Below, piece after piece: positions 7,846 to 38,601 of a stretch of 64,000 nt of DNA. The translations under genes were made by a program, and so were the position numbers. The notes below the pieces were generated by a model, which was not told the origin of the DNA, ran no database searches, and saw nothing but the letters and a program-made list of their open reading frames with translations. This DNA is from Planctomycetota bacterium (GTDB lineage Bacteria; Planctomycetota; J058). How positions within the stretch are numbered: the stretch's first letter is position 1; each line of letters opens with the position of its first letter. The stretch is from positions 4,002 to 68,001 of the forward strand of contig JAHBXY010000034.1 of NCBI GenBank assembly GCA_019636275.1. Direction: 5' to 3'.

Positions 7846-7851
7846 CCGGTC

Positions 7852-7912
7852 ACCGGTCACCGCCCACCGGTCACCGGTCACCGTGCGCGCCACCGCCCGC
7901 GCCGGGGTGTCC
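7852..7912. repeat. dispersed ~55-bp GC-rich repeat (ccggtcaccggtcaccgccc...caccgtgcgcgccaccgcccgcgccggg), copy 1
   Basis: Near-identical sequence recurs at 45172-45232. Copy 1 carries an extra 'accggtcaccggtc' insert. It sits immediately after the uppS stop. Confidence 0.6.
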
Positions 7913-8268
7913 GGCGCGCCGCTGCCAGGGCCGCCCGCGGCGTGGGCTCCGGTCGGGGCACCCCCGGTCCGCGGCCAGGACGGCCAGGAAGAGGGCCGTG
8001 AGCGGCCCTCGTCGTGGCCGTCGGCCGCCGCGGCCCCGACGAGCGGCGCGCGGGTGCCATCTCCCCGGCCGTCAGCGGTGCCGCGCGGCGAGCGTTGGCG
8101 CGACCCAGGCGTCCTGGTCACGCGGCAGCTCGCCGGCCAAGAGAGCCGCGGTTGCCCGGCGAGGCTTCGCCGAAGCCGCCGCGCCCGCGCGACTTGAGAA
8201 GTTGTGAGCTTCCGCTTGCAAGATCGGCGCGGCGGAGCCACAACCCATCGCGGCGCGGGGGGAACACC

Positions 8269-23769: not shown

Positions 23770-24397
23770 TGCCCTCGAGAGCCCAGTGACCAACCGTATG
23801 GCGCAGCATGGCCAGGGAGCGCTCTCCAAGGACGCGTCCGCCGTATGTAATCGCCCACAAGAGATCATCTCCTTGGTCGTCCATGTCTCGGTTGACCGAC
23901 GCGCGAGCGAACGCTCGAACTGCAAGTGCGCAGAAACACAACCGCTGGGCACCCGCCTGGTCCGCAATCTGACTAAGCGAACTGAGGTCGTCGTCCTGAC
24001 TAACTACACGCTGCCGGTGGTCATCGCATTGACATGCTTGCCAGCGACGAACTGACTCAACGAACGGTGAGAGAGTGCGCCCACCCGCGAACGAGTGGTC
24101 AGCGACGAGCCACTCTCTCGCGACAGCCACGGCGACCGCTTCTGACGCGCGAATCGCTCCGTCACGCCACCGCGAGATCAAGGCAGAAGCCCACGCTCCC
24201 AAGGTTTCTGCCTCCCCGGGTTGAACATCACCGACAGCCCTCCTCGCCCCCTCATGCCCGCAGTACGCCGCCAACTCCAGCCGCTCCCGCGTGAGGTCCC
24301 CCACGCGCACGCGCTCCAGCAGGTAGGCGGCCTCGTCCTCGACGGCGCCCGTCTCCCGCCAGCGGCGTTCGAGTTCGCGTAGCTTGGCGTCGCTCAT
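23750..24397 (-). CDS. candidate cognate immunity protein (convergent to toxin tip); conserved N-terminus, variable C-terminus
   Basis: 215 aa. The ATG has the RBS GGGGAGAG. It overlaps the toxin stop by 20 nt. The first ~55 aa (MSDAKLRELERRWRETG...AAYCGHEGARR) are shared with the paralogue at 41716-42312, and the sequences then diverge. Local GC drops to about 56-60%. Confidence 0.5.
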   Translation of the reverse strand: MSDAKLRELERRWRETGAVEDEAAYLLERVRVGDLTRERLELAAYCGHEGARRAVGDVQPGEAETLGAWASALISRWRDGAIRASEAVAVAVAREWLVADHSFAGGRTLSPFVESVRRWQACQCDDHRQRVVSQDDDLSSLSQIADQAGAQRLCFCALAVRAFARASVNRDMDDQGDDLLWAITYGGRVLGERSLAMLRHTVGHWALEGIRRTPG

Positions 24398-24676
24398 GAC
24401 GGCTGACTCTCCCCCGGAACCCCGAGCATGACCGTCCCCGCCGACATGCGCCGCGTCCTCCGCGCCCTCGCCGGCAAGCCCTGCTGGCACGTCTCGGCCG
24501 GCCCCGGAGTCGGCTCGACGTTCCAACTCGCCCTGGGTGCCAAGGTGCCACGGGCGAGGCCGCTCGCCAACCCTGCGCAGCCGCCGGCCTACCGGAAGTT
24601 CGAGGGCGAGTGCGCGCTCATGGTCTGGTGCGCCTGGCGACTCGACGGACCGCAGGGACCGGTGGTCAGCAGCGAC
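24232..24676. repeat. 445-bp direct repeat, copy 1 (divergent promoter block plus the 5' ends of two genes); partner 42147-42591
   Basis: Near-identical sequence at both sites. It encodes the N-termini of the minus-strand immunity-like genes and of the plus-strand MTVPADMRRVLRALAGK... genes. Confidence 0.85.
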
Positions 24677-24928
24677 TCCGAGGACGAGGTTGTGGACCGC
24701 CTGCTCACGCGCGCCCTGCGCGGCCGGACGGTCGAGCGGGCGCGGATCACGGTGCCGCTGGCGTGGGACCTGGAGGTCGCGTTCGACCGCGCGCTCGTCT
24801 TGCGCGTGCTCTGCGACCACCTGCCCGGCGACCCGTCGTTCGACGGCAACTACGAGGTCGTGCTGCCGGACCGGGAACTGGCCGTCGGGCCGGGGCGCAA
24901 GTGGGAGGTGGTGCCGAGGCGCCGGTGA
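24428..24928 (+). CDS. hypothetical protein (divergent partner of immunity-like gene)
   Basis: 166 aa. A truncated paralogue is at 42343-42591. The RBS is weak. Confidence 0.4.
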   Translation: MTVPADMRRVLRALAGKPCWHVSAGPGVGSTFQLALGAKVPRARPLANPAQPPAYRKFEGECALMVWCAWRLDGPQGPVVSSDSEDEVVDRLLTRALRGRTVERARITVPLAWDLEVAFDRALVLRVLCDHLPGDPSFDGNYEVVLPDRELAVGPGRKWEVVPRRR

Positions 24929-25313
24929 GCGGTGGCCCGCTGGCCCGGGGTCGGGTGCGAGGCGGCCGGCGGCGCCGACGCGGTGGCCGCGCTCGTCGAG
25001 GACAGGCCGGCGCTCAGGGCGGCCCTGGAGCGGGGGCGGGCGGCGGTGGCGGCCATGGCGCCGGTCGAGCAGGAGTCGGTGGTGGAGTTGGCCAGGGCGC
25101 TGCTCGGGTAGTGCATGGGGCGAAAGCCCCTGCGGCGGGCGGCACGGGCCGGCGACCTGGTGGGCTGACGTCCGGGCCGGCCGGTGACCTCCGAGGGCCG
25201 TACAGGGCGCGAGGCGCGCCGCACCGGGCGACGCGCCCCTCTCGACCGACATGGTGTTCTCGGAGAGCCCGGCGTCCCCGGCCACCGTGGTCGGGGCCGC
25301 CGAGCCGAGCGGG

Positions 25314-25697
25314 TTACTCCTCTTCCTCGTCGTCGTCGTCGTCCTCGCACTCGTCGCAGCCCTCGCAGTCCTCGTCGTCGCACTCGGGCTCCTCGAGGTC
25401 GTCATCCGACTCGTCGTCGTCTTCTTCGTCGGCCTCGTCCTCATCCGACTCGTCGGCATCCTCGTCGAGGTCGTCGTCCGACTCCTCCTGGTCTTCCTCC
25501 TCGTCTTCGCACTCGCGCTCACACTCCAGGACCTGCTGGTGGACCCACTCCCGCAGCTCGTCGATGTCCCACCGCCTGTGGCCGCCGATCGTCTGCTCGC
25601 ACGGGGCCCCAAGGGCCGCCCACCTGCACACGGTCGAGGCCGAGACGCCAAGGGCCTGGGCGGCCTGGCTTGTCGTCAGTAGCACGTTGTCTGGCAT
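25314..25697 (-). CDS. MerR/excisionase-family HTH protein with extreme poly-acidic, Cys-containing C-terminal tail
   Basis: 127 aa. The N-terminus LLTTSQAAQALGVSASTVCRWAALG...GGHRRWDIDELREWV is a helix-turn-helix. About 70 aa of D/E-rich tail follow (…CDDEDCEGCDECEDDDDDEEEE). Confidence 0.7.
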   Translation of the reverse strand: MPDNVLLTTSQAAQALGVSASTVCRWAALGAPCEQTIGGHRRWDIDELREWVHQQVLECERECEDEEEDQEESDDDLDEDADESDEDEADEEDDDESDDDLEEPECDDEDCEGCDECEDDDDDEEEE

Positions 25698-25782
25698 GTT
25701 TCGAACTCCGTCACCCGCTCAGACTCGACAGATAATCCGCGCAAGACGCGCATGCAAGGCTCGATGTGGGCTGTCGAGGCCT

Positions 25783-25840
25783 GACACGCCACAAGTCATC
25801 TGCGGCAGATGATTTGTCAAATCTGCGGCGCCCGAAGATT
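25783..25840. promoter_or_regulatory. palindromic operator-like site in divergent promoter region (tcatctgcggcagatga; second half-site atctgcggcg)
   Basis: A 17-bp near-perfect palindrome lies between the divergent HTH gene (25697, minus) and the 25874 plus gene. Confidence 0.4.
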
Positions 25841-25873
25841 CCTCGCGACTACGATCAGTCGGGAGGACTCGCC

Positions 25874-26416
25874 ATGGCGAACAGGACCCTCGTCGACGCT
25901 GTCGTCCAGCTCGGTCAGGTCGTCGAGGACCTGTCGGCCAGGGTCGCCGCGCTCGAGGCGGCTCGCGCCGACCTCGAACGGAAGACGGAGGTCGTCCAGG
26001 CCGCGCAGCGATCCTGGCGTCCGCTCATGCGGGTTCAGGGCGACCTGATGATCGCCAGCGAGGCCGGCGACACGGCCCGCGTGCCGCTGTCGGTGTGCCG
26101 TGCGTTGGCCGCCGGCAGGGCGCTCGACCTGGATGTCGCGCATGAGGGTGAGCTCGTTCGACTCGTCGATCATGGCGGACGCGCCGTCGCCACCTTGCCC
26201 AGGGCCGCCCTGCTGGCGCTGCCGCGGGTGCTGGGGTCGCCGGAGGCGACGAAGCTCTTGGGTGCGACGACGACTACAGGAGTTGGGTGTCGTAGTCGGA
26301 GTCGGACGACAGGAATGACAAGTATCGGATCGCCCGAGAACCGCGCGACAGGCCCGGTTCCGAGGCACAACAGCTCAGCGACAACAGGACCGGACTTCCG
26401 GGAACAGGAGGCCTGA
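25874..26416 (+). CDS. hypothetical protein (coiled-coil N-terminus)
   Basis: 180 aa. RBS GGGAGG is 7 nt upstream. It is the first gene of a 4-gene plus-strand block. Confidence 0.5.
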   Translation: MANRTLVDAVVQLGQVVEDLSARVAALEAARADLERKTEVVQAAQRSWRPLMRVQGDLMIASEAGDTARVPLSVCRALAAGRALDLDVAHEGELVRLVDHGGRAVATLPRAALLALPRVLGSPEATKLLGATTTTGVGCRSRSRTTGMTSIGSPENRATGPVPRHNSSATTGPDFREQEA

Positions 26417-26417
26417 C

Positions 26418-28226
26418 ATGGCTAAACGCGACGACATCCGGGTGCGACTGCTCGAACTCCTCGCAACAGGGCCTGCGAGCCTGCGACCGCTCTTCGCCGA
26501 GTTCCCGCGCTGGGAGGTCTATGCCGCGCTCAAGGAGCTCAGGGAGGAGATGCTGGTCATGCCGGGGCCGACGAAGGGCACCTGGCAGCTCACGCAGGCC
26601 GGGGTTCAGGCCGCCGAGGGCGCGCCGGTGCCGCCGGCGAGGTCCCCGATGAACTGGCCCACGCTGCCGGGCGTGCCGCACCTGGACGTGCTGCCCTCGC
26701 GCGAGCATCAGGCGCTCGGGCGACTGGTCCTGCTGGCCGCCACAGCCCGCCGGCACTACGAGCACCACCACGCGAGCTTCGTCTTGTTCAGCAGGTCGGG
26801 TCTGCGGGGCAAGACCTGGCTTGGGCGCTGGGCGTCGCTGGTCCTCGGTGGCGGCGACGTGGTGCACGCCGTCGCCGAGGGCGGGCGGTCGCTGGCCGCG
26901 CGGCGCCGAGGTGACGGCCAGGTCGCGGCGGTGCGGGCGGCGCTGGGCAGGCCGATGCTGATGATCGACGAGTGGCGGCGTGGGTCGACTGAGGTGCGGC
27001 GGTTGACGACCGTGCTCATCCACGGCGACAGGTTCGTCCCGTTCGAGGACGCGCAGATCCAGGTCGCCGCGGTCATCCTGCTCGCGATGAACTCCCCCGC
27101 CGGCGCCGAGAGCGTCGAGGAGGCGACCGGCCTCGACGCCCCGATGATCCGCAGGTGCTTGGTCACCTTCCTGGAGCGTGTGGTCCTGGATGCGGCGTTC
27201 GCCCGCGATGGCGAGGAGCGCCTGGATCGTGTCCGCGAACTCGGGCCTGTCGCGCTGCCTGACGTCAGGCCCGGCGCTGTGGACGAGCGCAGCCTCCGCG
27301 ACCGGATCGCCGACGCGCTGGAGGTCGTCTTGGACAGCCGCGAGCGCATGGGGTCGCTCGACCTGGTGCTGCTCGGTCAGCTCGCGGTGGCGGCCTGCGC
27401 GTGGGGCCTGTCGGTCGAGGAGGCGGTCGCCATGGTCGTGCACTCGTGCTGCGTGCTGTGGGCGACCACGGGGTGGACGGCGGCGGCCTGGGAGGAGCGG
27501 CTCGCCGAGGTGGTCGGACGAGACGAGGATGCTCACGAGGTCGAGGAGGCCGATGTCGTCATGGAGGATGACATCAAGTGCGACCACGCCTGGGAGGACC
27601 GGGTCGCCGAGCTCGACCGGGTCGCCCGGGCGCATGGCGCTGGCGACCCGACGGTGCTCGATTATCTGCTCCGGCTGGCGGCGGCAGTGCGCGGCGTGGG
27701 CCTGGGCGCCAAGGACCTCGCGGGAATCAGGGAGATGCTCACGATCGTGCGCGGGCGCGACGTCGACGCCGAGGGACGGCTGCGGGTCCTGGCCGCCATG
27801 GACGAGTGTGAGATCTCGCCCGAGGAGGCGAGGCGCGTGCTCGAGGTCGTGGCCGCCGGGAGGGAGGCGTTCGGCCTGGGCGCCGAGGACGTGATGCAGA
27901 TGCTGCGCGGTATCGGAGAGGCGGGACTGGACCCGGGCGAGGTCGGCGCCTGGGCGGCGTGGTCGATGGCGGAGCTCGGCAGGCTGGATGGCGAGGTCGA
28001 GCTGGCGCGTTCGGAGCTGCGGCGCTGGCGGCGTGATGTGGGGGAGGCGGCGGACCATCTCGCAACCCTCAACGCGAGGATCACCAAGCTCGCCGAGCTC
28101 ATCGGACGCGCGAGGAGCGAGCCGGGGCTGGCACGGCTGGTCGTCATGGCGGACTCGGAGCGAGGGCGCCAAGTCATTGCGCAGGTCATGCGGGCAGCGG
28201 AGGAGATTAGCGCGGCGACATCGTGA
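26418..28226 (+). CDS. hypothetical 602-aa protein with N-terminal winged-helix-like region
   Basis: RBS CAGGAGG. The N-terminus IRVRLLELLATGPASL...EVYAALKELREEMLV is wHTH-like. Confidence 0.5.
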   Translation: MAKRDDIRVRLLELLATGPASLRPLFAEFPRWEVYAALKELREEMLVMPGPTKGTWQLTQAGVQAAEGAPVPPARSPMNWPTLPGVPHLDVLPSREHQALGRLVLLAATARRHYEHHHASFVLFSRSGLRGKTWLGRWASLVLGGGDVVHAVAEGGRSLAARRRGDGQVAAVRAALGRPMLMIDEWRRGSTEVRRLTTVLIHGDRFVPFEDAQIQVAAVILLAMNSPAGAESVEEATGLDAPMIRRCLVTFLERVVLDAAFARDGEERLDRVRELGPVALPDVRPGAVDERSLRDRIADALEVVLDSRERMGSLDLVLLGQLAVAACAWGLSVEEAVAMVVHSCCVLWATTGWTAAAWEERLAEVVGRDEDAHEVEEADVVMEDDIKCDHAWEDRVAELDRVARAHGAGDPTVLDYLLRLAAAVRGVGLGAKDLAGIREMLTIVRGRDVDAEGRLRVLAAMDECEISPEEARRVLEVVAAGREAFGLGAEDVMQMLRGIGEAGLDPGEVGAWAAWSMAELGRLDGEVELARSELRRWRRDVGEAADHLATLNARITKLAELIGRARSEPGLARLVVMADSERGRQVIAQVMRAAEEISAATS

Positions 28227-28262
28227 TCAGCCGCCGCCCGGGGTGCCACGCCGCCGCTCCGC

Positions 28263-31200
28263 ATGTCAGTGAGCCGGAGTAGCGTCCGCCGCATGACCAT
28301 CTTCGACCTGTGGAACTGCAAGATCTACGAGGCCGTCGAGTCCATGCTCGACGAGGACGAGGACCTGCACGACGCCGTCGTCGACCCCGTCCTCGACCTC
28401 GCCCGCGCGATCGACGACGCCCTCTACGAGTGGCGTGTCACGCGGGCCGAGGGCCGTCACGCCGACGAGGTGCGCGCGGCCGCCCTGGCCGTCAGCGAGG
28501 CGGTGCTCGCGCTCGACCGCGGGCTGCCGACCTCGGTGTCGATCGGCGACGACGACGACGACGACGCCTACACGGACCTGGACCTGAGCGACATCTCGCG
28601 CGAGGTCGCCAGGCTGGTGATCGACGAGGGCGTCCCCGTGCTCTGCGTCGTCCGCGAGATCCACGACGGGCCGCGGCTCGTGCTGTCGCTCGCTGAGCAC
28701 GAGGCGCTGGACGCCCTGGCGACGGAGTATCGCGAGTACATGAGCGCGCTCCAGCGCGCGCGCGAGCAGTTCGCGCGCGCGCGCGTGCCGGAGAAGCTCA
28801 TGTCCGCCGACGAGGCTCGTGTCCGGATCGCGATCGCGCTGGCCGCGCCCGACCGCACGATCGCGCCCGGCGAGGTCCTCGCCATCGCGGTCACGCCAGG
28901 CGCCGGCAAGTCGTCCGGCGCGCAGGCCGCGGCCCGTACGCAGCCGGCTCTGCCCCTGGCCTATGTCGCACGCGACCATCGCCTGACGCGGCAGGTCTGC
29001 GCCGACCTGCTGGCGCCCTCCGCGCTGCCCGCACGCCGCACCACCAGGCGCATGGGGATCCTCTCGCCGCGCGGCGATCAGGACGACACGCCCCTCTGCC
29101 TGCGGCCAGAGGAGGCGAAGGCGATCCTCGAGGCGGGCGGCTCGCCCGCTCGGCTCCTGTGCGCGACCTGTCGACACGCGCCGCCGCACGGCGGCGCGTG
29201 CAAGGCGTACGGCGGCAGCGAGGGCAGCGCGCCGGACGCCCTCGTGACCGTGCCGCACCTGTCGCCGGTCGTCGACGCCTGGTGCGTCGACCAGGACCTG
29301 CCCCCCATGGTGATCATCGACGAGCCGCCGCCGGTCACCGACACCGTCGTCGTCTCGTCGCAGCAGGTGGAGCGGGCGATCGTCGTCCTGCGCGCTGCGC
29401 GCGCGGGCCTGACGGCCCCGCGCGCGCTGCCCAAGCGTCGGCACGATCGCCGTGGGCCGCGCAAGCTCGCGGACGGCAGGTACCGCCTCGGCGGGCCCGC
29501 CGTGGAGCCAGCGGTGGCGATCGCCGTCCTGCCGGCGCTCGAGCTCGTGCGGCGCCTGCTCGCGAGCGGGCGCGCGACCGAGGTCCCCTACGGCGTCGAC
29601 CCCGCGACCATCGTGCTCGACCCCGCTCCGCCGCCGATCCCGCACACCGCCACCGCGGTCGCAGACGCCGCGCGCGACCTCCTGCGCGCGAGCGTCGACC
29701 ACGCGTGGGGGCAGCGCCGGGGCGTGGTGACGACCTGGGTCGACGACCTGCGCGACCTCGGGCTGCCGGTCGGCGCGCCGCCCGCCACGGCCGACTGGGA
29801 GAGGCTGGACCCCACGCCCTGGATCGACGCGGCCAGCGGCGGCCTGTCGGTGCTCGCGCCCGTGACCTCGCTGGGCGACGACCGCGCCACGGTCGGCGTC
29901 GAGGAGGCCCTCTCGGAGCCCGCGCGGAGCACGCTCGCTGCGGCCGCGGAGGACGCGCCCCGCGCGCTCGACGCCCTGCGCGCGCTCTCGACCGGCCGCA
30001 CCCTCGCGCGCTGGCTCGCGCCCCAGCGCGAGCGCGGGCTGCCGCAGGGAGTCGCGCGCGTCGTCGATCGCACGATCGTGGTCACCGCGCCGAGCGTGCG
30101 CGCCGCCGAGCTGCTCGGCGCGCGAGGCCACCTCGCCGTGCTCGACGCGACCCCCGACCGCGCTGGTCTCGCGGCCGCCGCGCGCTGGGTGGGGCGGCAG
30201 CCGGTCTGGCTCGACCTCGACGTCGACGACGGCGCGGACGTGCGCCGGGAGATGATCTACGCCTCGGCTTCGGCGAAGCGCATCCTGCTCGCGGGGGGCG
30301 AGGTCCAGTGGGACGCCCTCGGCAGCCTGCTGGTCCATGCGCTCGAGCGAATCGGAGGTGACGCCGTCAGGACGGTCCTCGTCGTCACCCACAAGGCCGT
30401 CGCGGACGCCCTGCGGCCGATCCTGCACCTCGAGCGCCCTCACCTCCGCAAGGTCGGGCACGAGGGCGCTGCCGACGCGCTCCGCGGATGGTACGAGGGG
30501 CTGCCGGGTCGCCAGATCATCCTCGCCCACTACCACGCGATCCGAGGGCAAAACGCCTTTAGGTGGCGCAAGGACGAGATCCCATGGATCGCTCTCGACG
30601 CGTGCGTCACGATTGGGGACCCGTACCCGACGCTCGACCATGCGCGTGACGCAGGCATCCTGCTCGGCCTCGACGCCCCCATGGATCGCGTGCGCCAGCT
30701 CGCCGCCGACGAGCTCGCGCAGGCGCACGGTCGCCTGCGCGCGCCCGTGCGACCACGGCCAGGGCTGTCCGTACATCTCGGCCAGGTCGTACCGACCGGC
30801 TGGCATCCCGGCAACGCGGCGCTCATCGAGCTCGAGCGCGGGCGACCGCCGGATCCGGCGGACATGTCCCGCGAGGAGCTGCTCGCGCTCATCGCCGCCC
30901 ACGGGTCGGCAGGTGCGCTCGCGCGCGCCGCGATGGTGGCGCCATCGACGATCAGTCGGTACCTGTCTGGCAAGCGGATCCTGACGGCCTCGACGGCAGA
31001 GCGCCTGCGGGCTGCGCCGCTGCCGCCAGGAGTGACGCCGCCGGTCGTTGCCGCCGACGTCGTCGCCGCAGGCGCGCCGTCGGAGATCGATGCGCCGGCG
31101 ACCGACGCTGACGAGCCGCCGCCGCCCGCGCCGACTGCGCCGCCACCGATCATCCTGCCGCAGGTCGTCCGACTCGCGCCGCCCAGACCCCTGCCGGTGG

Positions 31201-31466
31201 ACGACGACGAGGCGCGGGCCCTGCTCTGCGCGCGCGTCGAGGAGGTCGAGGGCGTCCTCGCCGCGCGCCTCGCCGCCCTCGAGGTGGCGCTGGCCGACGT
31301 CACTGACGAGCGCCAGCGCGTCGCGGCCACCCGCCGCTGGCTCGAGGCCACGCCCGTGACGCCGGCCTGGCCGGCGTCGGACGCCGAGCGCGCCGCCCGG
31401 CTCCTGGGCGGCGTGCCGGCCGCCATAACCCGCCTCGCGGCGGAGCAGTGGTGGGTCGGACGCTAA
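28263..31466 (+). CDS. large P-loop NTPase (Walker A AVTPGAGKSS, Walker B VIIDEPP) with acidic N-terminal region and C-terminal XRE-like HTH
   Basis: 1067 aa. An alternative start is at 28293 (MTIFDLW). The C-terminus STISRYLSGKRILTASTAERL is HTH-like. Confidence 0.55.
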   Translation: MSVSRSSVRRMTIFDLWNCKIYEAVESMLDEDEDLHDAVVDPVLDLARAIDDALYEWRVTRAEGRHADEVRAAALAVSEAVLALDRGLPTSVSIGDDDDDDAYTDLDLSDISREVARLVIDEGVPVLCVVREIHDGPRLVLSLAEHEALDALATEYREYMSALQRAREQFARARVPEKLMSADEARVRIAIALAAPDRTIAPGEVLAIAVTPGAGKSSGAQAAARTQPALPLAYVARDHRLTRQVCADLLAPSALPARRTTRRMGILSPRGDQDDTPLCLRPEEAKAILEAGGSPARLLCATCRHAPPHGGACKAYGGSEGSAPDALVTVPHLSPVVDAWCVDQDLPPMVIIDEPPPVTDTVVVSSQQVERAIVVLRAARAGLTAPRALPKRRHDRRGPRKLADGRYRLGGPAVEPAVAIAVLPALELVRRLLASGRATEVPYGVDPATIVLDPAPPPIPHTATAVADAARDLLRASVDHAWGQRRGVVTTWVDDLRDLGLPVGAPPATADWERLDPTPWIDAASGGLSVLAPVTSLGDDRATVGVEEALSEPARSTLAAAAEDAPRALDALRALSTGRTLARWLAPQRERGLPQGVARVVDRTIVVTAPSVRAAELLGARGHLAVLDATPDRAGLAAAARWVGRQPVWLDLDVDDGADVRREMIYASASAKRILLAGGEVQWDALGSLLVHALERIGGDAVRTVLVVTHKAVADALRPILHLERPHLRKVGHEGAADALRGWYEGLPGRQIILAHYHAIRGQNAFRWRKDEIPWIALDACVTIGDPYPTLDHARDAGILLGLDAPMDRVRQLAADELAQAHGRLRAPVRPRPGLSVHLGQVVPTGWHPGNAALIELERGRPPDPADMSREELLALIAAHGSAGALARAAMVAPSTISRYLSGKRILTASTAERLRAAPLPPGVTPPVVAADVVAAGAPSEIDAPATDADEPPPPAPTAPPPIILPQVVRLAPPRPLPVDDDEARALLCARVEEVEGVLAARLAALEVALADVTDERQRVAATRRWLEATPVTPAWPASDAERAARLLGGVPAAITRLAAEQWWVGR

Positions 31467-31563
31467 GTCCATATTTCGCTACGACTTGCCCGTTGCCAGA
31501 ACCCCACTATCTGTACTGTACTGGAATTCTGGCAACACGTAACAATGAGGAGGAACTGAGGTT

Positions 31564-32304
31564 ATGCAGAGAGTCCAGATCAGAGCCAGCCGAGCCGAGC
31601 TCCCCGCCCTCGCGGCGGCGGCCACCTACGGTCTGCCGGCGGGCGCCCGAGGCCGGTGGCTGTCGGCGATCGTCGTCGCGGCGGATTACTCGATGCGCGC
31701 GGACCTCGGCCGGACGATCCGGGTCCGGCTCGCCATCCGGACCGACGACCCGGCGCACCGTCGTGGCGTCATCGAGGACGCCCTGAAAATCGCTCACTCG
31801 CGCCACGTCGCGCGGCTTCGTCGCGCGCTCGACCTGGACGAGGGCGAGCCGGTGACTCCCGAGGCGGTCCTCGGCGCGCACGTCCTCGTGCTGATCGGCC
31901 TCGATGCTGAGGGCGGATGGCGCGTGCGTGGCTACCGCCACCTGTTCGCGGAGCGCATGCGCCCCGCGCACGAGGCGCTCGGGCTGCGCCCGAGCGAGAG
32001 GAAGCGCTACTACGGCGTGATCGACGACGTCGAGGTCGCGGGCGGGGGCGCGAACCGCCTCGAACTCCGCCTGGCGATCGACGTGGGCGACGACCCCGCT
32101 GCCGACGCCGTCCACCTGGCGGCCAGCCTGCTGTGCACGACGCAGACCGTCGTCGCTGGCGTCCGCATGCTAGGCGACGACGGCGCCTGGGCACTCGACC
32201 CGCGCGAGCTGACGGGCATGCCGGTGCGCATCACCTGCTGGGCGGAGAGCTACGGCGCGCGCTACCCCGTCCACGTCGTCGTGGGGTCGATCGAGGCGGC
32301 ATAG
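31564..32304 (+). CDS. hypothetical protein
   Basis: 246 aa. It has a strong RBS (AGGAGGAAC) and is preceded by an AT-rich promoter-like region with the inverted repeat ttgccagaa/ttctggcaa. Confidence 0.5.
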   Translation: MQRVQIRASRAELPALAAAATYGLPAGARGRWLSAIVVAADYSMRADLGRTIRVRLAIRTDDPAHRRGVIEDALKIAHSRHVARLRRALDLDEGEPVTPEAVLGAHVLVLIGLDAEGGWRVRGYRHLFAERMRPAHEALGLRPSERKRYYGVIDDVEVAGGGANRLELRLAIDVGDDPAADAVHLAASLLCTTQTVVAGVRMLGDDGAWALDPRELTGMPVRITCWAESYGARYPVHVVVGSIEAA

Positions 32305-32470
32305 GTCACCTCCGCTCGCGTCGGTCGCCCTGCGCGCGCGCGCGTCGTCGGGCCCGCGCGCGCGTTGTTCGGACCGCGCGCGCGGTCCTGCGCGCCCGCG
32401 CGCGCGTGTTGTTCGGGCCGCGCGCGCGTCGGTCGGACCGCGCGCGGGTCCTGCGCGCCCGCACGCGGCG
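32300..32470. repeat. GC-rich imperfect tandem repeat array (~20-22-bp units, core G(G/A)(C/G)CCGCGCGCGCG; includes perfect palindrome ggaccgcgcgcgcggtcc)
   Basis: About 7 units lie immediately upstream of the serine recombinase gene. Confidence 0.6.
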
Positions 32471-32525
32471 GCCAAGTTGCCCGCCCTGACGAATCACCCG
32501 CTACGGTCACGTCAGGAGGTCAGCC

Positions 32526-33143
32526 ATGACCACACGAGTCGCCCTCTACGCGCGCGTCTCTACGCCCGATCAGAACCCCGCCATGCAGGTCGAGGCCATG
32601 CAGGCCGAGGCCGCGCGTCGCGGCTGGATCGTCCACGACACCTACATCGACCACGGCGTCAGCGGCGCCAAGGACCGACGCCCGGCGCTGGACCGCCTGA
32701 TGGCGGCCATGCGGTCAGGCGAGGTGCAGGCCGTGATGGTGTGGAAGTTCGACAGGATGGCGCGATCGGTGCGCCACCTCCTTGCCGTCGTGGACGAATT
32801 CCGCGCTAACGACGTGCTCTTCATCTCCCTCACGGAAAACATCGACACGTCCTCCGCCATTGGCGCCGCCATGCTCATCATCCTGGCCGCGATCGCCCAA
32901 CTCGAGCGCGACATCATCCGCGAGCGCGTCCTCGCAGGCGTGGCCCGCGCCCGTCGCCGCCGCTCGACCTGGGGCCGAGCCCAGCGGTGGACCGAGGAGG
33001 ACGCGCGCAGGGCGATCGAGCTCCGCTCCCAAGGCCGATCCTGGCGCGAGGTCGCCATGGCGACGCACCTACCCGTCAGGACGATCCGTCGGGCCGTGGC
33101 CGCCGTGGCACATACCTCCCCCTCGCAGACGCCCTCCGCGTAG
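32526..33143 (+). CDS. serine recombinase (resolvase/invertase family)
   Basis: Has the catalytic-Ser motif ALYARVSTPDQ near the N-terminus and a C-terminal HTH. Confidence 0.9.
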   Translation: MTTRVALYARVSTPDQNPAMQVEAMQAEAARRGWIVHDTYIDHGVSGAKDRRPALDRLMAAMRSGEVQAVMVWKFDRMARSVRHLLAVVDEFRANDVLFISLTENIDTSSAIGAAMLIILAAIAQLERDIIRERVLAGVARARRRRSTWGRAQRWTEEDARRAIELRSQGRSWREVAMATHLPVRTIRRAVAAVAHTSPSQTPSA

Positions 33144-33179
33144 AGGGAGAGGGTGGGGTCGCGATGACCCCTGCCGACC

Positions 33180-33620
33180 TCACCTGCTTGTGCCACGGCG
33201 GGCGGACCGGCCTGACGCCCTTCGCTTCGGCCCGAGGCGCCGATCCTCGCCCTCCCGCTCCGGCTCCAGGAACAGCCTGACGAGCCGCTCGATCTTCGAC
33301 ATCTGGGAGACGCTCGCGCCCCTGGCCAGCGCAGCGACCCTGCGCCCGAGGGCGTCTGCCGGCGTCGCGGCAGCCTCCTTCGCACCGAAGCGGAACAGCT
33401 CGTGCGGCGCGACGTCGAGGCCCCTGGCGATCTTCTCCAGGCTCTCGACCGTCGCGGCCTTCTCGCCGCGCTCGACGGTCCCGAGGAACACCTTGCTGAT
33501 GCCGCTCGCGATCGCGAGTTGGCCCTGCGTCAGGCCCCGCCGTTCGCGCAGCTCCCGGATGCGGTCGCCCAGAGGCGCCTTGATGTCCTTCGCACGAGGC
33601 TTGATGCGTGGCCGGCCCAC
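33180..33620 (-). CDS. XRE-family HTH transcriptional regulator
   Basis: LGDRIRELRERRGLTQGQLAIASGISKVFLGTVERGEKAATVESLEKIARGLDV is a Cro/C1-type HTH. GTG start with RBS AAGGAG. Confidence 0.7.
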   Translation of the reverse strand: MGRPRIKPRAKDIKAPLGDRIRELRERRGLTQGQLAIASGISKVFLGTVERGEKAATVESLEKIARGLDVAPHELFRFGAKEAAATPADALGRRVAALARGASVSQMSKIERLVRLFLEPEREGEDRRLGPKRRASGRSARRGTSR

Positions 33621-33913
33621 GAGGACTCCTTTGGGTGTCCAGGCTACAGCCACCCCGAAGGCCCGCAACGGCCCGTAGTTGCTGGCCTGTCGCGAGAGGC
33701 GCCGCCTAGCGGCAACATCCCACTGGATGTATGCGCAAGAACATCGTAGGGATGTTATTGCGACAGCATCCGGGCCCCGCCAGCCACGGCCACGCGCGCA
33801 CCTGCCCGCGCTCGAGGTCGCCACGTCCATGGCCGGCGTGGGCTCCGGACGTCGCCTCCGCCGCACCCCTGGGCCGGGCGCGTCGGGCGACCCAGGCCCC
33901 TCAGGAGTCCACG

Positions 33914-34303
33914 ATGATCACTCGCGTCCTGACGGCGCTGACCTGCGCCGTCGCCCTATCCGTCACCGGATGCGCCGCGACGAACGCGCCCGCGTCCGGC
34001 CTGCTGTTCACCAGCGTGAGCGGTCCGCTCAACGCGACCGACTTCGGCGCTCCGCATGCGCCTGCGCAGCCGACGAGCTCCTACGGCTCGACCGCCGCTC
34101 CCGCGACGCCAGCGCCTGCCGCCACGAAGACCGGCACGAGCGAGACGACCGGCTTCCTCTGGCTGGTCAGCATCGGCGACGCCTCGATCGACACGGCCAA
34201 GAAGAACGGCGCGATCACGCGCGTCGCCTCGACGGACTACCAGCACGTCATCGTGCTCGGGGGTCTGTTTTCCAAGTTCACGACGATCGTGAAGGGCGAG
34301 TAG
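33914..34303 (+). CDS. TRL-like family lipoprotein
   Basis: 129 aa. Has a lipobox (LSVTGC), an AGGAG RBS and the C-terminal block TDYQHVIVLGGLFSKFTTIVKGE. Confidence 0.5.
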   Translation: MITRVLTALTCAVALSVTGCAATNAPASGLLFTSVSGPLNATDFGAPHAPAQPTSSYGSTAAPATPAPAATKTGTSETTGFLWLVSIGDASIDTAKKNGAITRVASTDYQHVIVLGGLFSKFTTIVKGE

Positions 34304-34535
34304 CCGAACGACGAAGCGGCCTCCGAGCCGCATCCACACCACCACGCGGCCCCCGATCCGAACCCGCCAGTTCCGCGCAGCGCCGCCGCAACCATGACCG
34401 ACACCCGCGAGGGCGTCGGCCACGGACCGCTCGCGCTGCGGCCTCTGGCGGGGCCCGGGTCGGGGGCGGCACCGGGCCGGCGCCCTCGCCCTGTACGGCG
34501 AGGGCGTGGGCTCGGGCACGCACAGGAGCCCCGCC

Positions 34536-35999
34536 ATGTCGAAGAAGAACCAGACGCCCGACGTCGAAGGCGACAGGCCCGACCCGCTCACGGTCGTTGT
34601 GGACGGCCTGCGCTACACGCTCGACGCTGCGCCTCGCAGGAGCGGCAAGAAGAACATCGTCACCGTCGCGCTCGACGGCTCGACCGAGACGACGCCACCG
34701 CTCGTCGATCGCTGCGACCTGTTCGCGTTCAGGAGCCGCCGAGCGCTCGCGCAGCTCGTGGCCGACCTGTTCGGGCGCGAGCAGGGCGCGGTCCTCGGCG
34801 CCTTGGCCCTGCTGCTCGATCAGGCCGAGCGCACGGCCCAGCTCGATCGGCCTACGCCTGAACGTCTGTCCGACGAGCGTCGCAAGGCCGCCGAGCAGCT
34901 CCTCGCCAGCAAGGACCTGCTCGACCGCGCCGCCGCCGCCATGGAGGCGCTCGGCCACGTCGGCGAGGAGCACGTCAAGCGGATCGCCTACCTCGTCGCC
35001 ACGAGCCGGCTCATGGCGTCGCCGCTGTCGCTGCTCCTGCTGGCGCCCTCGGGCACCGGCAAGAGCGCCGTGCTGGATGCCGTGTCGGCGCTCATGCCGT
35101 CGGAGTCCGTCGTCACGCTGGCGCGCCTGACGCCGCAGGCGCTGTTCTACAGCGGCAGCGACGCGCTCCGGCATCGCCTCGTGATCGTCGACGAATACGA
35201 AGGCCAAGCCGACGCCGACCACGCCGTGCGCGTCCTCCAGAGCAGGGGCGAGCTCCGCCAGTCGGTCACCATCCGGGGCAAGGCCGAAGAGCTCGTCGCC
35301 AAGGGCCCCGTCGCCGTCATGAGCGGGACGACGCTCTCGAACATCGACCCGCAGAACACGAGCAGGTGCATCGAGCTCGCCCTCGACGACAGCCTCGAGC
35401 AGACCCGCCGCGTGCAGGCCGCGCAGGCCGCCGCCTGGTCCGGCGCGCGGAAGGCGACGCTGAACATCCAGGTGTGGCACGACGCCCAGCGCCTGCTCGG
35501 CGAGGAGCCGCCGGTCCACGTCGTCATCCCGTTCGCCGCGAAGCTCACGTTCCCCGCGAGGACCACCGCCGATCGCCGCGCGTCGGCCAAGCTCCTCGGC
35601 CTCGTTGCGGCTCACGCCCTGCTCCACAGTCGGCAGCGCGAGCGCGACCGCGAGGGCCACGTCGTGGCCACGGTCGCCGACTACGCCGTCGTGCATGCTC
35701 TCGTGCAGCCCGCGCTCGACGCGGCCGCGCTGGACCTCTCGCCTCGGGCGGCTCGCGTCCTGCGCTGGATGACGGAGCACGAAGGCGAGGCTACCGACCG
35801 CCGCGAGGTCGCCAGCGCGATGGGCTGGAGCTACAACACCGCGAAGAAGGCGCTCGCCGAGCTGGCCGCGCAGGAGCTGGTGCGCGTCGTCGAGCCCGGG
35901 CCGCCCGCCCGCTACCGCCTGCTCGGGCCGCGGGGCGCCCTGGGCGGGACGTCCGAGCTGATCGCGCCTGCCGCCCTCGCCGCGCGTCGCACACGCTGA
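34536..35999 (+). CDS. P-loop NTPase (putative primase/helicase-associated or mobilisation ATPase)
   Basis: Walker A LAPSGTGKSAV and Walker B LVIVDEYEG. RBS CAGGAG. Confidence 0.55.
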   Translation: MSKKNQTPDVEGDRPDPLTVVVDGLRYTLDAAPRRSGKKNIVTVALDGSTETTPPLVDRCDLFAFRSRRALAQLVADLFGREQGAVLGALALLLDQAERTAQLDRPTPERLSDERRKAAEQLLASKDLLDRAAAAMEALGHVGEEHVKRIAYLVATSRLMASPLSLLLLAPSGTGKSAVLDAVSALMPSESVVTLARLTPQALFYSGSDALRHRLVIVDEYEGQADADHAVRVLQSRGELRQSVTIRGKAEELVAKGPVAVMSGTTLSNIDPQNTSRCIELALDDSLEQTRRVQAAQAAAWSGARKATLNIQVWHDAQRLLGEEPPVHVVIPFAAKLTFPARTTADRRASAKLLGLVAAHALLHSRQRERDREGHVVATVADYAVVHALVQPALDAAALDLSPRAARVLRWMTEHEGEATDRREVASAMGWSYNTAKKALAELAAQELVRVVEPGPPARYRLLGPRGALGGTSELIAPAALAARRTR

Positions 36000-36219
36000 C
36001 CGGGCCCTTGCACGCGTAGGCCCTTGCACAGCAAGGCCGTTGCACAGCGTTGCACGGCGCGTTGCACGGGCTAAGTGGCGCGCCCGTAGGCCCTTGAGCC
36101 CTCGGCCGGGTCTCCGGCACCGCCTCCACACCATCCATCCGGCCTGCGCCCCCCGTCGCAGGCCTAACCCACCACACCACCTCACCGAACCGCCGGCCCC
36201 GCCGGCAAGGAGTGCCTCG

Positions 36220-36486
36220 ATGTCCGCCTACCGTCTCTCCTGGCCCAAGGCGATCCGCCGCTACGCCCGGCGCCTCGGCGCCAAGGACGCCCACCGGGTC
36301 GCCGAGCGCGTCCTGATCCTCTCCCTGCTGGCCGCCCACGCCGGCACGCCGACGCCGGCCAAGACCGGGATCACCGCGATCGACAGGTACGTCCGCTCGC
36401 TGCCGAGGCACATGCGGCGGCGCGCCCAGCGGATCGTCGTCGACTTCATCAACGACTTGTCGAAGATCAACCGGAGCGCGAAGTGA
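36220..36486 (+). CDS. small protein upstream of tyrosine recombinases (possible directionality or accessory factor)
   Basis: 88 aa. RBS AAGGAG. Its stop overlaps the recombinase GTG start. Confidence 0.4.
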   Translation: MSAYRLSWPKAIRRYARRLGAKDAHRVAERVLILSLLAAHAGTPTPAKTGITAIDRYVRSLPRHMRRRAQRIVVDFINDLSKINRSAK

Positions 36487-37433
36487 GCCGCCGCCGCACG
36501 CCGGCCCTGACCTGGGAGGCGGCGCTCGACGCCTACGAGACGCACCTCCGCGCCCGCCGCGCGTCGCCCCGCACGATCAGCCGCTACCTGGCCGACCTGC
36601 GCCACCTCGCCGCGTCGCTGCCCGACCGCACCCCGGGCGAGGTCACCACCGAGGACCTGCGCACGCTCCAGGTCCGCCTGCTCACCGGCGAGGCGTCCGT
36701 CAGCCGGAGGCCGCTCTCCGCCGCCTCGGCGTCGCGGATCGGCTCGGCCTGGCGCGGGTTCTTCGGCTTCCTCGCGGCCGAGGGGCGCGTCGCGCTCGAC
36801 CCGACCGTGCGCCTCGAGCAGCCCCGCGCCCCGCGCCGAGCGCCGGGCGACGCGCTGACCGTCAAGGAGGTCGAGCGGCTCCTCGGCGCCTTCGCCGCGA
36901 CCACGCCCGCGTCGCTGCGCGACCGCGCGATCCTGGAGGTCCTGTACGCCACCGGCCTGCGCAACGCCGAGCTGTGCGCCCTGGACCTGGCCGACGTGGA
37001 CCACGCCGAGCGCGAGGTCACGGTCCGCGCGGGCAAGGGCGAGAAGGGCCGGATCGTGCCGATCACGCGCTCGGCCCACGCGCGCCTGCGCGACTACCTC
37101 GACGACGCGCGCGCCGCGCTCGCCTCCTCGCACCCCGACTCCGGCGGGGCGCTGTTCCTCACCGCGCGCGGCCGGCGCGTCCACGGCGTCCACCTGCTGC
37201 GGCTGCTGCGCGAGGCCGCGCGCCGCGCGGGCATGAAGAAGAACGTCACGCCCCACACGCTCAGGCGGACCTTCGCCACGGCGCTGCTCAGGAACGGCGT
37301 GAACGTGCGCGTGATCCAGGTCCTGCTCGGCCACGAGTCGCTCACGACCACGGCCGCCTACCTGAAGCTCGACCGCTCGGATCTCCGGCGGGAGCTGCTC
37401 CTGCGCCACCCGCGCGAGCGGCTGGAGGCCTAG
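36483..37433 (+). CDS. tyrosine recombinase (XerC/XerD / phage integrase family)
   Basis: The C-terminus HTLRRTFATALLRNGVNVRVIQVLLGHESLTTTAAYLKL carries the R-H-R-Y catalytic signature. Confidence 0.9.
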   Translation: MSRRRTPALTWEAALDAYETHLRARRASPRTISRYLADLRHLAASLPDRTPGEVTTEDLRTLQVRLLTGEASVSRRPLSAASASRIGSAWRGFFGFLAAEGRVALDPTVRLEQPRAPRRAPGDALTVKEVERLLGAFAATTPASLRDRAILEVLYATGLRNAELCALDLADVDHAEREVTVRAGKGEKGRIVPITRSAHARLRDYLDDARAALASSHPDSGGALFLTARGRRVHGVHLLRLLREAARRAGMKKNVTPHTLRRTFATALLRNGVNVRVIQVLLGHESLTTTAAYLKLDRSDLRRELLLRHPRERLEA

Positions 37434-37436
37434 GCC

Positions 37437-38381
37437 ATGGCCCGCGACTCGAGGGGGCTCGCCCGTGCGCTGACCGCCGCCGACCGCGAGCTCCAGCGCC
37501 TCGGCCGCGCCCCGCGCACGCGCGAGGACGTCCTCGCGGAGACCCGGCGGTTCCTCGCCGCGACCGGCCGCGCGGCCCGCGCCGTCCGGCGCGAGGACGT
37601 CGTCCGCTACCTGGCCGCCGCGCAGCGGCGCGGCGTCACCGGGCGCACGCAGCAGAACGCGCTCACGCTCCTGCGAATGTTCTTCCGCGCCCTCGTGACG
37701 GCCGGCGCCGTGCGCGCGGACCCCACGGCCGACGTGCCCTTCCCGCAGGCCGGCGAGCCCGCGCGCCTGGCCGTCTCCGAGCAGGGCGCGCGGGCGCTGC
37801 TCGTGTCGTCCTCGACGCCGGCCGAGCGCAGGCACGGCCAGGCCACGGTCGACGCGCGCACGGCGCTGGCGCGCGCCCGCCGCGACCGGGCCGCGCTCGA
37901 GGTCCTGTTCGGCCTCGGCGTGCGCTCCTCCGAGGCCCGGACCGCCCGCGTCGCCGACCTGGACCTCGCGAACGGCACGCTGCTCGTCCGCCGCGCCAAG
38001 CGTGGAGAGGTCGAGCGCCTGCCGCTGCCGCCGGCCGCGCTGCCGCACGTCGCGAGCTACGCCCTCGACGCGCGGCGGCTCCTGCTCGGCCAGGCGCCGG
38101 ACCACGGCCTGCTCCTCGTGCGTGACGACGGGCGGCCGTTCACGTACGGCAGCGCCCTCAACGTGCTCGTGTCGCGCGTGGCCCGGCGCGCGGGCGTGCG
38201 GGCGCACCCGCACGCGCTCAGGCGCGGCCTGGCCACGGCGCTGGTGCGGCGCGGCGCGTCGCTGCCGGTCGTGCAGGCGCTCCTCGGGCACAAGGACCTG
38301 GCCGTCGTCGCCGCGTACGTGCTCGTCGACAAGGACGACCTGCGCCGCGCGGTGGAGGCGCTGGAGCTGGAGCGGCGGTAG
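37437..38381 (+). CDS. tyrosine recombinase, second of tandem pair
   Basis: HALRRGLATALVRRGASLPVVQALLGHKDLAVVAAY is the integrase catalytic box. Confidence 0.9.
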   Translation: MARDSRGLARALTAADRELQRLGRAPRTREDVLAETRRFLAATGRAARAVRREDVVRYLAAAQRRGVTGRTQQNALTLLRMFFRALVTAGAVRADPTADVPFPQAGEPARLAVSEQGARALLVSSSTPAERRHGQATVDARTALARARRDRAALEVLFGLGVRSSEARTARVADLDLANGTLLVRRAKRGEVERLPLPPAALPHVASYALDARRLLLGQAPDHGLLLVRDDGRPFTYGSALNVLVSRVARRAGVRAHPHALRRGLATALVRRGASLPVVQALLGHKDLAVVAAYVLVDKDDLRRAVEALELERR

Positions 38382-38601
38382 TCGCTGGCGCGTCACGCCC
38401 CCGGCGGCCACCCTCACCTTCGTCGTGCTCCTCGGCCAGCTCCAGCTCGTCCTCGTCGTCGTCGCCACGGTCTCCGCGCCGGTCACGGTCGCCGACCCGA
38501 ACGAACCTCGGGAGCGGTTCGGGTCGACCGGCCAGGGGCGCTCCTCACAGGTGGCCCGGAAAGGGGCCCTGGAGGCGGGCAGAGCGGGGGCGAGTGTAGG
38601 T

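Follow-up and report, generated by a model that had tools for sequence, protein, structure and literature searches.

A 64,000-nucleotide stretch of a Planctomycetota metagenome-assembled genome (MAG; GenBank assembly GCA_019636275.1, contig JAHBXY010000034.1, positions 4,002 to 68,001 of the forward strand), hereafter called the window, contains a full-length RHS gene and, downstream of it, a truncated RHS orphan with a different C-terminal (CT) toxin region. We lean toward the view that the segment between them, at 25.3 to 38.4 kb, forms the backbone of a mosaic mobile element that has integrated here and carries an RHS toxin-immunity cassette as cargo. The segment ends in two tandem tyrosine recombinase genes (YR1 and YR2), preceded by an MCM-like helicase gene and an iteron cluster. 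Its modules recur as mosaics in relatives, RHS cassettes lie on one side of the recombinase pair, and two direct repeats bracket the segment. If the cassette is cargo, a concrete vehicle for the diversification of RHS toxins has been named. To our knowledge, the arrival of new CT toxin and immunity genes at RHS loci is usually put down to "horizontal transfer plus core homology" with no vehicle named, and the mobile elements of Planctomycetota are poorly known. Here, a replicon and recombinase module is tied physically and directionally to RHS-tail cassettes across many Planctomycetota. We found no description in the literature of an element with an MCM-like helicase, iterons, and a double recombinase tied to RHS tails, and the helicase-iteron-double-recombinase unit appears to be an undescribed mobile-element core.

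The GC content of the window is approximately 75%, and the raw list of open reading frames (ORFs) consisted mostly of spurious frames; genes were therefore chosen by the GC content of third codon positions (GC3), and the calls were checked against Pfam, NCBIfam, PADLOC, and PHROGs. The spacing of the locus tags from KF878_12775 (a 602-aa gene) to KF878_12805 (the helicase gene) agrees with the gene calls in between. Loci of relatives (n = 99, labeled L###) were obtained from context look-ups and two collection scans; homologs of YR1 with 46 to 62% identity are plentiful in Planctomycetota MAGs and metagenomes. The control set comprised 108 loci (1.36 Mb) around more distant Xer-like recombinases, including 80 IMG/VR contigs. 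Because the control loci come from other taxa, the asymmetry between upstream and downstream sequence within the family loci is the cleaner control.

The element backbone and its conserved core

The initial annotation described an excisionase-like helix-turn-helix protein, an XRE repressor, a serine recombinase behind a GC-rich array, two P-loop proteins, and a small protein followed by two tandem tyrosine recombinases. All of these are present, and a third AAA+-like protein of 602 aa has to be added to the two P-loop proteins of 1,067 and 487 aa. The features of the segment, in window coordinates, are as follows.

25314-25697, minus strand: predicted DNA-binding protein of HTH_17/MerR type, excisionase-like and acidic in its tail; no conserved backbone gene lies farther left.
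25874-26416, plus strand: 180-aa backbone protein, function unassigned; a 44% homolog lies directly upstream of the 602-aa homolog in L096.
26418-28226, plus strand: 602-aa backbone protein with an N-terminal winged helix, an AAA+-like domain, and a long helical tail.
28263-31466, plus strand: 1,067-aa P-loop protein with Walker A GAGKS, IIDEPP, and a C-terminal HTH_3 domain (Pfam), in the variable replication-type block.
31564-32304, plus strand: 246-aa protein, function unassigned, in the variable block (GC3 0.89).
32313-32467: GC-rich palindromic repeat array with a period of 20 to 42 bp (TRF score 110 to 127) and CGCGCGCG-type units.
32526-33143, plus strand: small serine recombinase of resolvase/invertase type, 205 aa (Resolvase E = 7.6e-43; phrog_125 DNA invertase).
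33180-33620, minus strand: XRE/Cro-C1-type repressor, 146 aa (HTH_31 E = 2.6e-13, HTH_3 E = 7.9e-12), with homologs in L093 to L096.
33914-34303, plus strand: TRL-family lipoprotein, 129 aa (Pfam TRL E = 1.3e-21), with homologs of 85%, 86%, and 66% identity in L093 to L095.
34536-35999, plus strand: predicted AAA+ helicase of MCM-like type, 487 aa, ending in a winged helix; the conserved core starts with this gene.
36008-36069: iteron cluster of five direct TTGCAC(R)(S) copies just past the helicase stop codon (TRF, sequence).
36220-36486, plus strand: 88-aa basic ORF overlapping the YR1 start (GTGA).
36483-37433, plus strand: Xer-like tyrosine recombinase YR1, 316 aa (Phage_integrase E = 4.9e-42).
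37437-38381, plus strand: Xer-like tyrosine recombinase YR2, 314 aa (Phage_integrase E = 1.3e-24), starting 3 nucleotides past the YR1 stop codon.

The same order of genes recurs on the unrelated contigs L093 to L096: the HTH_17 gene (minus strand), a gene of approximately 180 aa, the 602-aa gene, a variable block, the resolvase, the XRE gene (minus strand), the TRL gene, the helicase, YR1, and YR2. The closest helicase relatives showed 91%, 88%, and 72 to 74% identity, and the homologs of the serine recombinase showed 97%, 86%, 48%, and 57% identity in L093, L094, L095, and L096, respectively. Within L093 the identities were those of a mosaic, with 78% for the 602-aa protein, 97% for the resolvase, 83% for XRE, 85% for TRL, 91% for the helicase, and only 55% for YR1. 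The content of the central block differed from contig to contig: it holds the 1,067-aa and 246-aa genes in the window, a Prim-Pol and a UvrD helicase in L093, other unannotated genes including that of a 762-aa protein in L094, an AEP-TOTE primase in L095, and DUF3987 genes in L096. No homolog of the 1,067-aa or the 246-aa protein was present in the fetched loci, and the 246-aa protein matched no family in the four collections. DNA homology to L093 and L094 begins at 32466/32480, exactly at the end of the GC-rich array, which is absent from both loci; the array thus marks a junction between mosaic modules, and it may be a res-like or REP-like element.

The 602-aa gene was found at 36 to 78% identity in L093 to L095 and at 58% in L096 by tblastn, and a protein search gave matches of 84% in the same MAG and 42 to 78% elsewhere. 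The 84% copy lies on another contig of the MAG (KF878_17445, compared with KF878_12775 in the window). Two copies of the gene are present in the KIT58 MAG, and three contigs of CALDQK01, a marine MAG, carry the recombinase pair, two of them together with the helicase. The contigs of relatives also tend to break at or just past the recombinase genes, as repeated DNA would. Because the same set of modules occurs in different contexts, in several copies per MAG, with mosaic identities and with such contig breaks, the 13-kb segment, judged by these sequence comparisons, is mobile DNA and not conserved core chromosome, in line with the mobile-element-like module of the initial annotation. The element family seems confined to Planctomycetota.

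These observations also bear on the idea that the segment is not currently mobile and is an old domesticated remnant fixed in the RHS locus, with its recombinases serving the host, for example, in Xer-type dimer resolution. Such a layout can be stable, since L047 and L049 keep a 17-kb arrangement at 82 to 93% identity; in addition, no att site was found, and frameshifts occur in YR1 of L099 and in the helicase of L096. However, the scores of YR1 and YR2 are well short of the XerC/XerD equivalog cutoffs, a MAG can hold several copies, modules have been exchanged between relatives, the catalytic motifs of the window recombinases are all intact, and the relatives' contigs break at the recombinase genes. 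We therefore consider a domesticated remnant very improbable.

The most widely conserved part of the backbone is a unit found in approximately 45 loci, in which a P-loop protein of 400 to 500 aa is followed by YR1 and YR2. The helicase in the window has the motifs Walker A GTGKS and VDE, Pfam matches to MarR_2 and AAA_29, and PF27228 among its precomputed matches. In its AlphaFold 2 model (pLDDT 85), the top 50 Foldseek matches were all MCM proteins (best E = 8e-12, TM-score of approximately 0.45); a profile built from 40 homologs retrieved no MCM from the PDB sequences, and Pfam likewise gives none. An exhaustive search yielded 6,632 representative relatives, many of which form the C-terminal half of proteins of 700 to 1,000 aa, and, of the six long ones tested, five have a DnaG-type zinc finger and a Toprim primase at the N-terminus. 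We conclude that the 487-aa protein is a predicted replicative-helicase module. For the 602-aa protein, the model (pLDDT 74) matched MCM/RavA at E = 2e-5 with a low TM-score of approximately 0.3, and its family profile gave nothing or only spurious matches against the PDB sequences.

The iteron cluster directly follows the helicase gene and holds all four TTGCACRG sites and five of the eight TTGCAC/GTGCAA sites of the 64-kb window. Across the family loci, the spacer between helicase and YR1 measures 115 to 484 bp and contains no conserved ORF; in most loci it has three to seven copies of an element-specific 7-mer (TTGCCAC, TCTACCA, TCTGCCA, GTTACCA, and others), typically approximately 100-fold denser than in the rest of the locus. 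Such 7-bp clusters were seen in L003, L011, L026, L037 to L041, L045, L047, L049, L095, and other loci. The motif differs from element to element, which would fit coevolution with a DNA-binding protein. We read the cluster as a putative origin or, less likely, as a recombinase-binding region. The MCM-like fold of the helicase, its primase-fused long relatives, and the iterons in the spacer together are the grounds for reading the element as a replicon.

Both recombinases appear intact, as the initial annotation had stated. In YR1, residues R160, K185, R261, H284, and Y293 are invariant and H258 is nearly so in an alignment of 24 sequences; in YR2, the R-K-H-R-H-Y residues were read by eye in the translation. 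YR1 scored 235 and 232 bits with the XerD and XerC models, under their cutoffs of approximately 330 bits, and its best PDB match was XerD (E = 3e-35). YR2 scored 120 bits with the NCBIfam XerD model, also below the cutoff. We rejected the possibility that the pair is the host XerC/XerD, given the scores of 235 and 120 bits against cutoffs of 330 to 335, the several copies per MAG, and the mobile-element context. In relatives, too, YR2 starts directly at the YR1 stop or overlaps it, and the two genes are probably translationally coupled.

The initial annotation had likened the recombinase pair to Tn554 or to recombinase-in-trio (RIT) elements, and neighboring genes for two tyrosine recombinases, with a small ORF beside them, do resemble such transposons. 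The likeness did not hold up. Only two recombinases are present in the window and in approximately 45 relatives, both of approximately 315 aa and Xer-like; the small ORF lies upstream of them and is conserved only in L093 and L094; and the conserved partner is instead the 487-aa MCM-like helicase with its iterons. NCBIfam gave only marginal partial matches to other mobile-trio recombinases. L093 has the 88-aa ORF with approximately 80% conservation and a gene call, L094 has it in part, and the other family loci have no equivalent. That the element is a transposon of the Tn554 or RIT type would surprise us greatly. Two further candidates were discarded. A 148-aa ORF starting at 36040 was considered as a conserved recombinase partner and rejected. 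A Tn3-family transposon was rejected because the serine recombinase is the only such component; the sole DDE transposase gene is IS481-like, lies 9.6 kb off, and lacks inverted repeats.

The HTH_17 protein at the left end matched Pfam HTH_17 (E = 2.9e-7) and phrog_66, fell just below the cutoff of the TIGR01764 excisionase model (28.0 versus 28.8 bits), and has a 48% homolog at the equivalent position in L096. PADLOC gave no defense-system match in the window except for a weak match between the HTH protein and the mad1 model of the candidate system mads_1. At gathering thresholds, Rfam gave no match in the window, and a scan for promoters and terminators was uninformative in its GC range.

Some relatives carry other mobile-element genes near the core. 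Genes of a terminase large subunit and a major head protein were found just upstream of the helicase in some loci (L047, 3-968 and 4072-5220; L002, 557-1954), and the conserved core thus also occurs at the end of phage-like modules. IS91-family Y2 (HUH) transposase genes lie downstream of the core in L024, L026, L038, L047, and L049 and upstream in L009, L034, and L097; there are none in the window.

RHS cassettes beside the recombinase pair

The initial annotation had proposed looking for homologous elements with RHS C-terminal cassettes next to the recombinase pair, and this check turned out positive. The RHS search used tblastn with the RHS core of the window, which is biased toward the conserved core tail, and was complemented by a regular-expression (regex) scan for YD repeats. 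In the 139.9 kb downstream of YR2 in nonredundant family loci, tblastn detected an RHS-core tail in 14 loci, all on the strand of the recombinases. The identical search of 132.9 kb upstream of the helicase detected no RHS-core tail; because tblastn missed a YD-repeat gene upstream in L096, this figure is valid for core tails only. The 108 control loci gave no RHS match by tblastn or regex. Seventeen loci were flagged as having at least 2.5 kb of sequence downstream, one of them spuriously (L119, from the viral set), and a tail was present in 12 of the other 16. Among the weak or regex-detected cases, L002 and L058 showed YD repeats, and L019 and L046 showed only the NPVNRVDPxGL end motif before the toxin region. 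The tails comprise approximately 15 to approximately 730 aa of core, start 0.17 to 7 kb past YR2, and often have an in-frame, hydrophobic, signal-peptide-like lead.

The position is not always occupied by an RHS gene. P-loop ATPase genes follow YR2 in L008 (after 7965) and L045 (after 5549), with the motifs GPNAAGKST and GRNGTGKTN and no RHS toxin; these genes may be defense-type cargo. L047 and L049 are syntenic over 17 kb at 82 to 93% identity, yet their toxin/immunity segments differ. In L010, the whole unit of helicase, YR1, YR2, RHS tail, CT, immunity-like gene, and DDE gene is tandemly duplicated at 97.5% identity.

In the window, the RHS locus on either side of the segment consists of the following features.

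10270-23769, plus strand: main RHS gene, 4,499 aa (ORF, GC3, Pfam RHS_repeat, DPWGL boundary), with repeat A1 at 20758-22923, a core end at NRVDPWGL, and the CT1 toxin region at 22924-23769.
23750-24397, minus strand: convergent immunity-like gene 1, 215 aa (translation, codon-position GC).
24238-24676: direct repeat B1, 439 bp (self-BLAST, alignment).
24428-24928, plus strand: "geneB," 166 aa, function unassigned (GC3 0.93, translation).
38584-41709, plus strand: orphan RHS with 728 aa of core (repeat A2 at 38602-40767), DPWGL, and the CT2 toxin region at 40768-41709.
41716-42312, minus strand: convergent immunity-like gene 2, 198 aa (translation, flank alignment).
42153-42591: direct repeat B2, containing the truncated 5' half of the 166-aa gene at 42343-42591.
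42772-43863, minus strand: distant IS481-like DDE transposase gene (rve_3, HTH_32; 87.5 bits with the IS481 model versus a 224-bit cutoff).

The layout is thus main RHS, A, CT1, immunity-like gene 1, B, 13.9 kb of intervening DNA, A', CT2, immunity-like gene 2, B', and the DDE gene. The orphan has a 5'-truncated core homologous to the full gene of the same locus, and a different C-terminal toxin follows its DPWGL, as in an RHS orphan. Its core matches residues 3491 to 4218 of the main protein with 94.6% identity over 728 aa (blastp). In self-BLAST, repeat A (20758-22923 and 38602-40767) is a direct repeat of 2,166 bp with 92.5% identity, comprising the last 722 core codons up to NRVDPWGL, and repeat B (24238-24676 and 42153-42591) is a direct repeat of 439 bp with 93.9% identity. 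Of the 163 differences between A1 and A2, 106 (65%) fall at third codon positions, and amino acid identity is 95%. This excess of third-position changes suggests that both copies descend from functional RHS genes and that the orphan is not a decaying local duplicate. CT2 matched DUF3990 (E = 6.6e-10), and CT1 matched no family.

Repeat B takes in the part of the immunity-like gene that encodes the N-terminus and runs across the divergent intergenic region into the 166-aa gene, of which it includes the 5' half; the 166-aa gene is full length at 24428-24928, and its 5' half is duplicated at 42343-42591. This geneB matched no family in Pfam, NCBIfam, PADLOC, or PHROGs and has no homolog in the fetched loci of relatives. 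The two immunity-like genes share their N-terminus (MSDAKLRELERRWRETG.. in gene 1) and differ in their C-terminal parts. The shared domain of approximately 50 aa, MSDxKLRELERRWRETG (MSDxKLRxLERRWRETG in the window pair), lies within repeat B, so that the variable cassette is bounded on both sides by conserved sequence. The same N-terminus occurs in a convergent gene after the RHS tail in L010, L019, and L097, and the copy of L096 lies to the left of its element. From their position, the convergent minus-strand ORFs are likely candidate immunity genes; they matched no known family in Pfam, NCBIfam, or PHROGs, and no good codirectional ORF follows the toxins.

The YR2 stop codon is at 38379-38381 and homology to the main RHS gene begins at 38584 (protein) or 38602 (DNA), so that the gap is approximately 200 to 220 bp, in agreement with the initial estimate of approximately 220 bp. 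GC3 is high in the frame running into the orphan (38382-38600), which encodes a hydrophobic stretch resembling a signal peptide; in the window, this frame showed no clear start codon. A hydrophobic in-frame stretch after YR2 was also observed in L003, L014, L017, L043, and L046. Given these signals, the orphans adjoining YR2 may be expressed genes for short secreted toxins rather than silent fragments.

RHS genes can also be found on the other side of the element. By the regex YD-repeat scan, L096 and L099 resemble the window in having an RHS-type gene upstream; in L096, this gene is separated from the HTH_17 gene by a convergent immunity-like gene. Both full-size elements with a visible left flank, those of the window and L096, sit inside an RHS locus.

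Homologs of the DDE gene, with 47 to 62% identity and in part incomplete, follow the cassette on the minus strand in L010 (twice), L026, L038, and L041. Their divergence (approximately 47 to 62%) is similar to that of the core genes, and the tandem unit of L010 ends 18 bp upstream of the DDE start codon. No convincing terminal inverted repeats were found for this gene in the window or in L010.

Proposed mechanism and competing readings

According to the reading we lean toward, the element has a conflict-gene slot directly downstream of YR2, which would usually hold a 5'-truncated RHS-core tail, a C-terminal toxin, and a convergent immunity-like gene. A circular copy of the element carrying A-CT-imm-B could enter a resident RHS locus by a single homologous crossover in A or B, which would produce the observed layout. 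The A and B repeats would then allow later exchange of the cassette or excision of the circle, and an excised circle might be replicated by the helicase and origin of the element itself. The tyrosine recombinases may act in integration at some site or in dimer resolution and, together with the serine recombinase, in integration elsewhere or multimer resolution. The bracketing repeats are at least as suggestive of homologous as of site-specific recombination. In a broader and frankly tentative form, Planctomycetota might harbor self-replicating elements in which an RHS-core "homology handle" with a new toxin and immunity gene docks into resident RHS genes by homologous recombination, so as to deliver, store, or swap cassettes, while the recombinase pair and iterons control the episomal state.

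Several observations weigh against this reading. Closely related cores (80 to 89% DNA identity) are homologous only as far as the YR2 stop and are followed by different content; this limit could mark the end of the element rather than a cargo slot. No RHS tail follows YR2 in L099, and L003 has ordinary chromosomal genes upstream of the core with no RHS 5' part. An orphan of host origin that predates the element would also account for the 92.5% identity between the orphan core and the RHS gene of the host. The search itself was uneven, since tblastn missed a genuine YD-repeat gene in L096 until the regex scan. Direct and inverted repeats were sought by comparing the left side (24.6 to 26.0 kb, or the stretch from the resolvase to TRL) with the sequence that follows YR2, repeat B, and the DDE gene; no att-like repeats above the level of shuffled sequence flanked the element in the window, L003, or L097 besides the A and B homologies. 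Scans with Pfam, NCBIfam, PADLOC, and PHROGs found no phage structural and no conjugation or transfer genes in the segment, which the initial annotation had already noted. The family was not found in IMG/VR, where the helicase has no relatives and recombinases reach at most 40% identity.

Some of these points would be explained if the element ended after YR2 and its tyrosine recombinases placed it site specifically at RHS loci, so that the tail, toxin, and immunity-like gene were host DNA, either an orphan already in place or the 3' remainder of an RHS gene that had been split. The stop of related-core homology at the YR2 stop codon, the 92.5% identity of the window orphan core to the host RHS gene, and the presence of RHS genes on the upstream side in the window, L096, and L099 all agree with this, and integrase genes commonly adjoin the att site. 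However, tails of approximately 15 to approximately 730 aa that start 0.17 to 7 kb past YR2 misfit a single fixed target site, and the 300 bp after YR2 contained no conserved motif in 38 loci by k-mer search or MAFFT alignment. L003 lacks an RHS 5' part upstream of its core, where ordinary chromosomal genes lie, the tandem unit of L010 includes the cassette, and L008 and L045 hold other genes in the slot. In addition, several downstream ORFs have their own hydrophobic N-terminus, unlike the product of random truncation. We judge such insertion into RHS loci rather unlikely.

The variable content directly after a recombinase also raises the question of capture, in which YR1 and YR2 would collect or shuffle RHS-CT/immunity cassettes at a site just past YR2 in the manner of integrons or of rAID-1 (recombinase-associated acquired interbacterial defense). 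An Xer-like recombinase indeed stands at the 5' end of a low-GC cassette (61 to 67% versus 72 to 78% GC), and there are precedents in rAID-1 of Bacteroidales (10.1101/471110) and in XerC/D genes by polyimmunity loci (PMC3482391). In contrast to an array, a single cassette follows YR2, the exceptions being insertion sequence (IS) genes and the whole-unit duplication of L010. No repeated attC/attI-like motif above shuffled controls occurs after YR2 or between the genes, and the cassette is flanked by long homologies of 2.2 kb and 0.44 kb, as is typical of homologous exchange. Capture by the recombinases is thus improbable in our judgment, and an element that carries the cassette as cargo remains the reading we prefer.

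Other features of the window were recorded apart from the element. To the right of the DDE gene, a GAF-domain coding sequence (43812-45180, minus strand) appears to be split over two frames, which could reflect a frameshift, a pseudogene, or an assembly error. The region from 45000 to 48000 has a strong AT skew (+0.39 to +0.41) at 76 to 81% GC and no frame with a convincing codon-position signal. ARAGORN called a doubtful 87-nucleotide tRNA-Arg(CCG) at 50063-50149 (minus strand); Rfam at its gathering threshold finds no tRNA in the window. An imperfect palindrome of approximately 210 bp (6746-6956), 76% self-complementary with 94% sub-arms, lies upstream of an undecaprenyl-diphosphate synthase gene, and a 75-bp direct repeat (83%) joins two otherwise unrelated places, 7845-7919 and 45169-45232.

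Comparison with known systems

In the rAID-1 loci of Bacteroidales, an Xer-family recombinase stands beside acquired lower-GC polymorphic-toxin genes (10.1101/471110), and Zhang et al. (2012) reported XerC/D genes adjoining polyimmunity loci (PMC3482391). The window family resembles these systems in having an Xer-family recombinase at the 5' end of lower-GC acquired toxin-system genes of variable content. It differs from rAID-1 in its two coupled recombinases, MCM-like helicase, iterons, and Planctomycetota host. The slot in the window holds one RHS tail and toxin with one convergent immunity-like gene, whereas rAID-1 has a codirectional array of orphan immunity genes, and the window family shows no integron-like repeated motif.

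With Tn554 (TnpA/TnpB/TnpC) and RIT elements, the window element shares adjacent and probably coexpressed tyrosine recombinase genes; however, it has two similar-sized Xer-like recombinases and not three, no conserved small third protein, and in their place a helicase and iterons. The MCM and primase-helicase replication proteins of prokaryotic mobile elements are similar in their AAA+ MCM-like fold, winged helix, DnaG-fused relatives, and nearby origin-like iterons. In contrast, the window protein has no sequence-level match to solved MCMs and no primase domain, and in its family the gene is always followed by two tyrosine recombinases.

Prophages and satellites have accessory hotspots adjacent to their integrase genes, such as the P2/P4-type defense hotspots. 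The likeness to these lies in a variable conflict-gene slot beside an integration module, in the ATPase genes of some relatives, and in the terminase and head genes upstream in some. The window family differs in that its cargo is overwhelmingly an RHS tail with a toxin, with long homology to a resident gene, no defined att site, and absence from IMG/VR.

The layout also resembles the classical Rhs orphan arrays of enterobacteria, in which a main rhs gene is followed by rhs-CT/rhsI orphans, often with H-rpt/IS elements. As in these arrays, the window has a core that is 5' truncated and runs to DPxGL, a different toxin with an immunity-like gene of its own, and then an IS-type transposase gene, and the core homology allows recombination with the main gene. 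The window locus is set apart from the enterobacterial arrays by the 13-kb element backbone between main gene and orphan, the duplicated repeat B, and convergent immunity-like genes with a conserved N-terminal domain.

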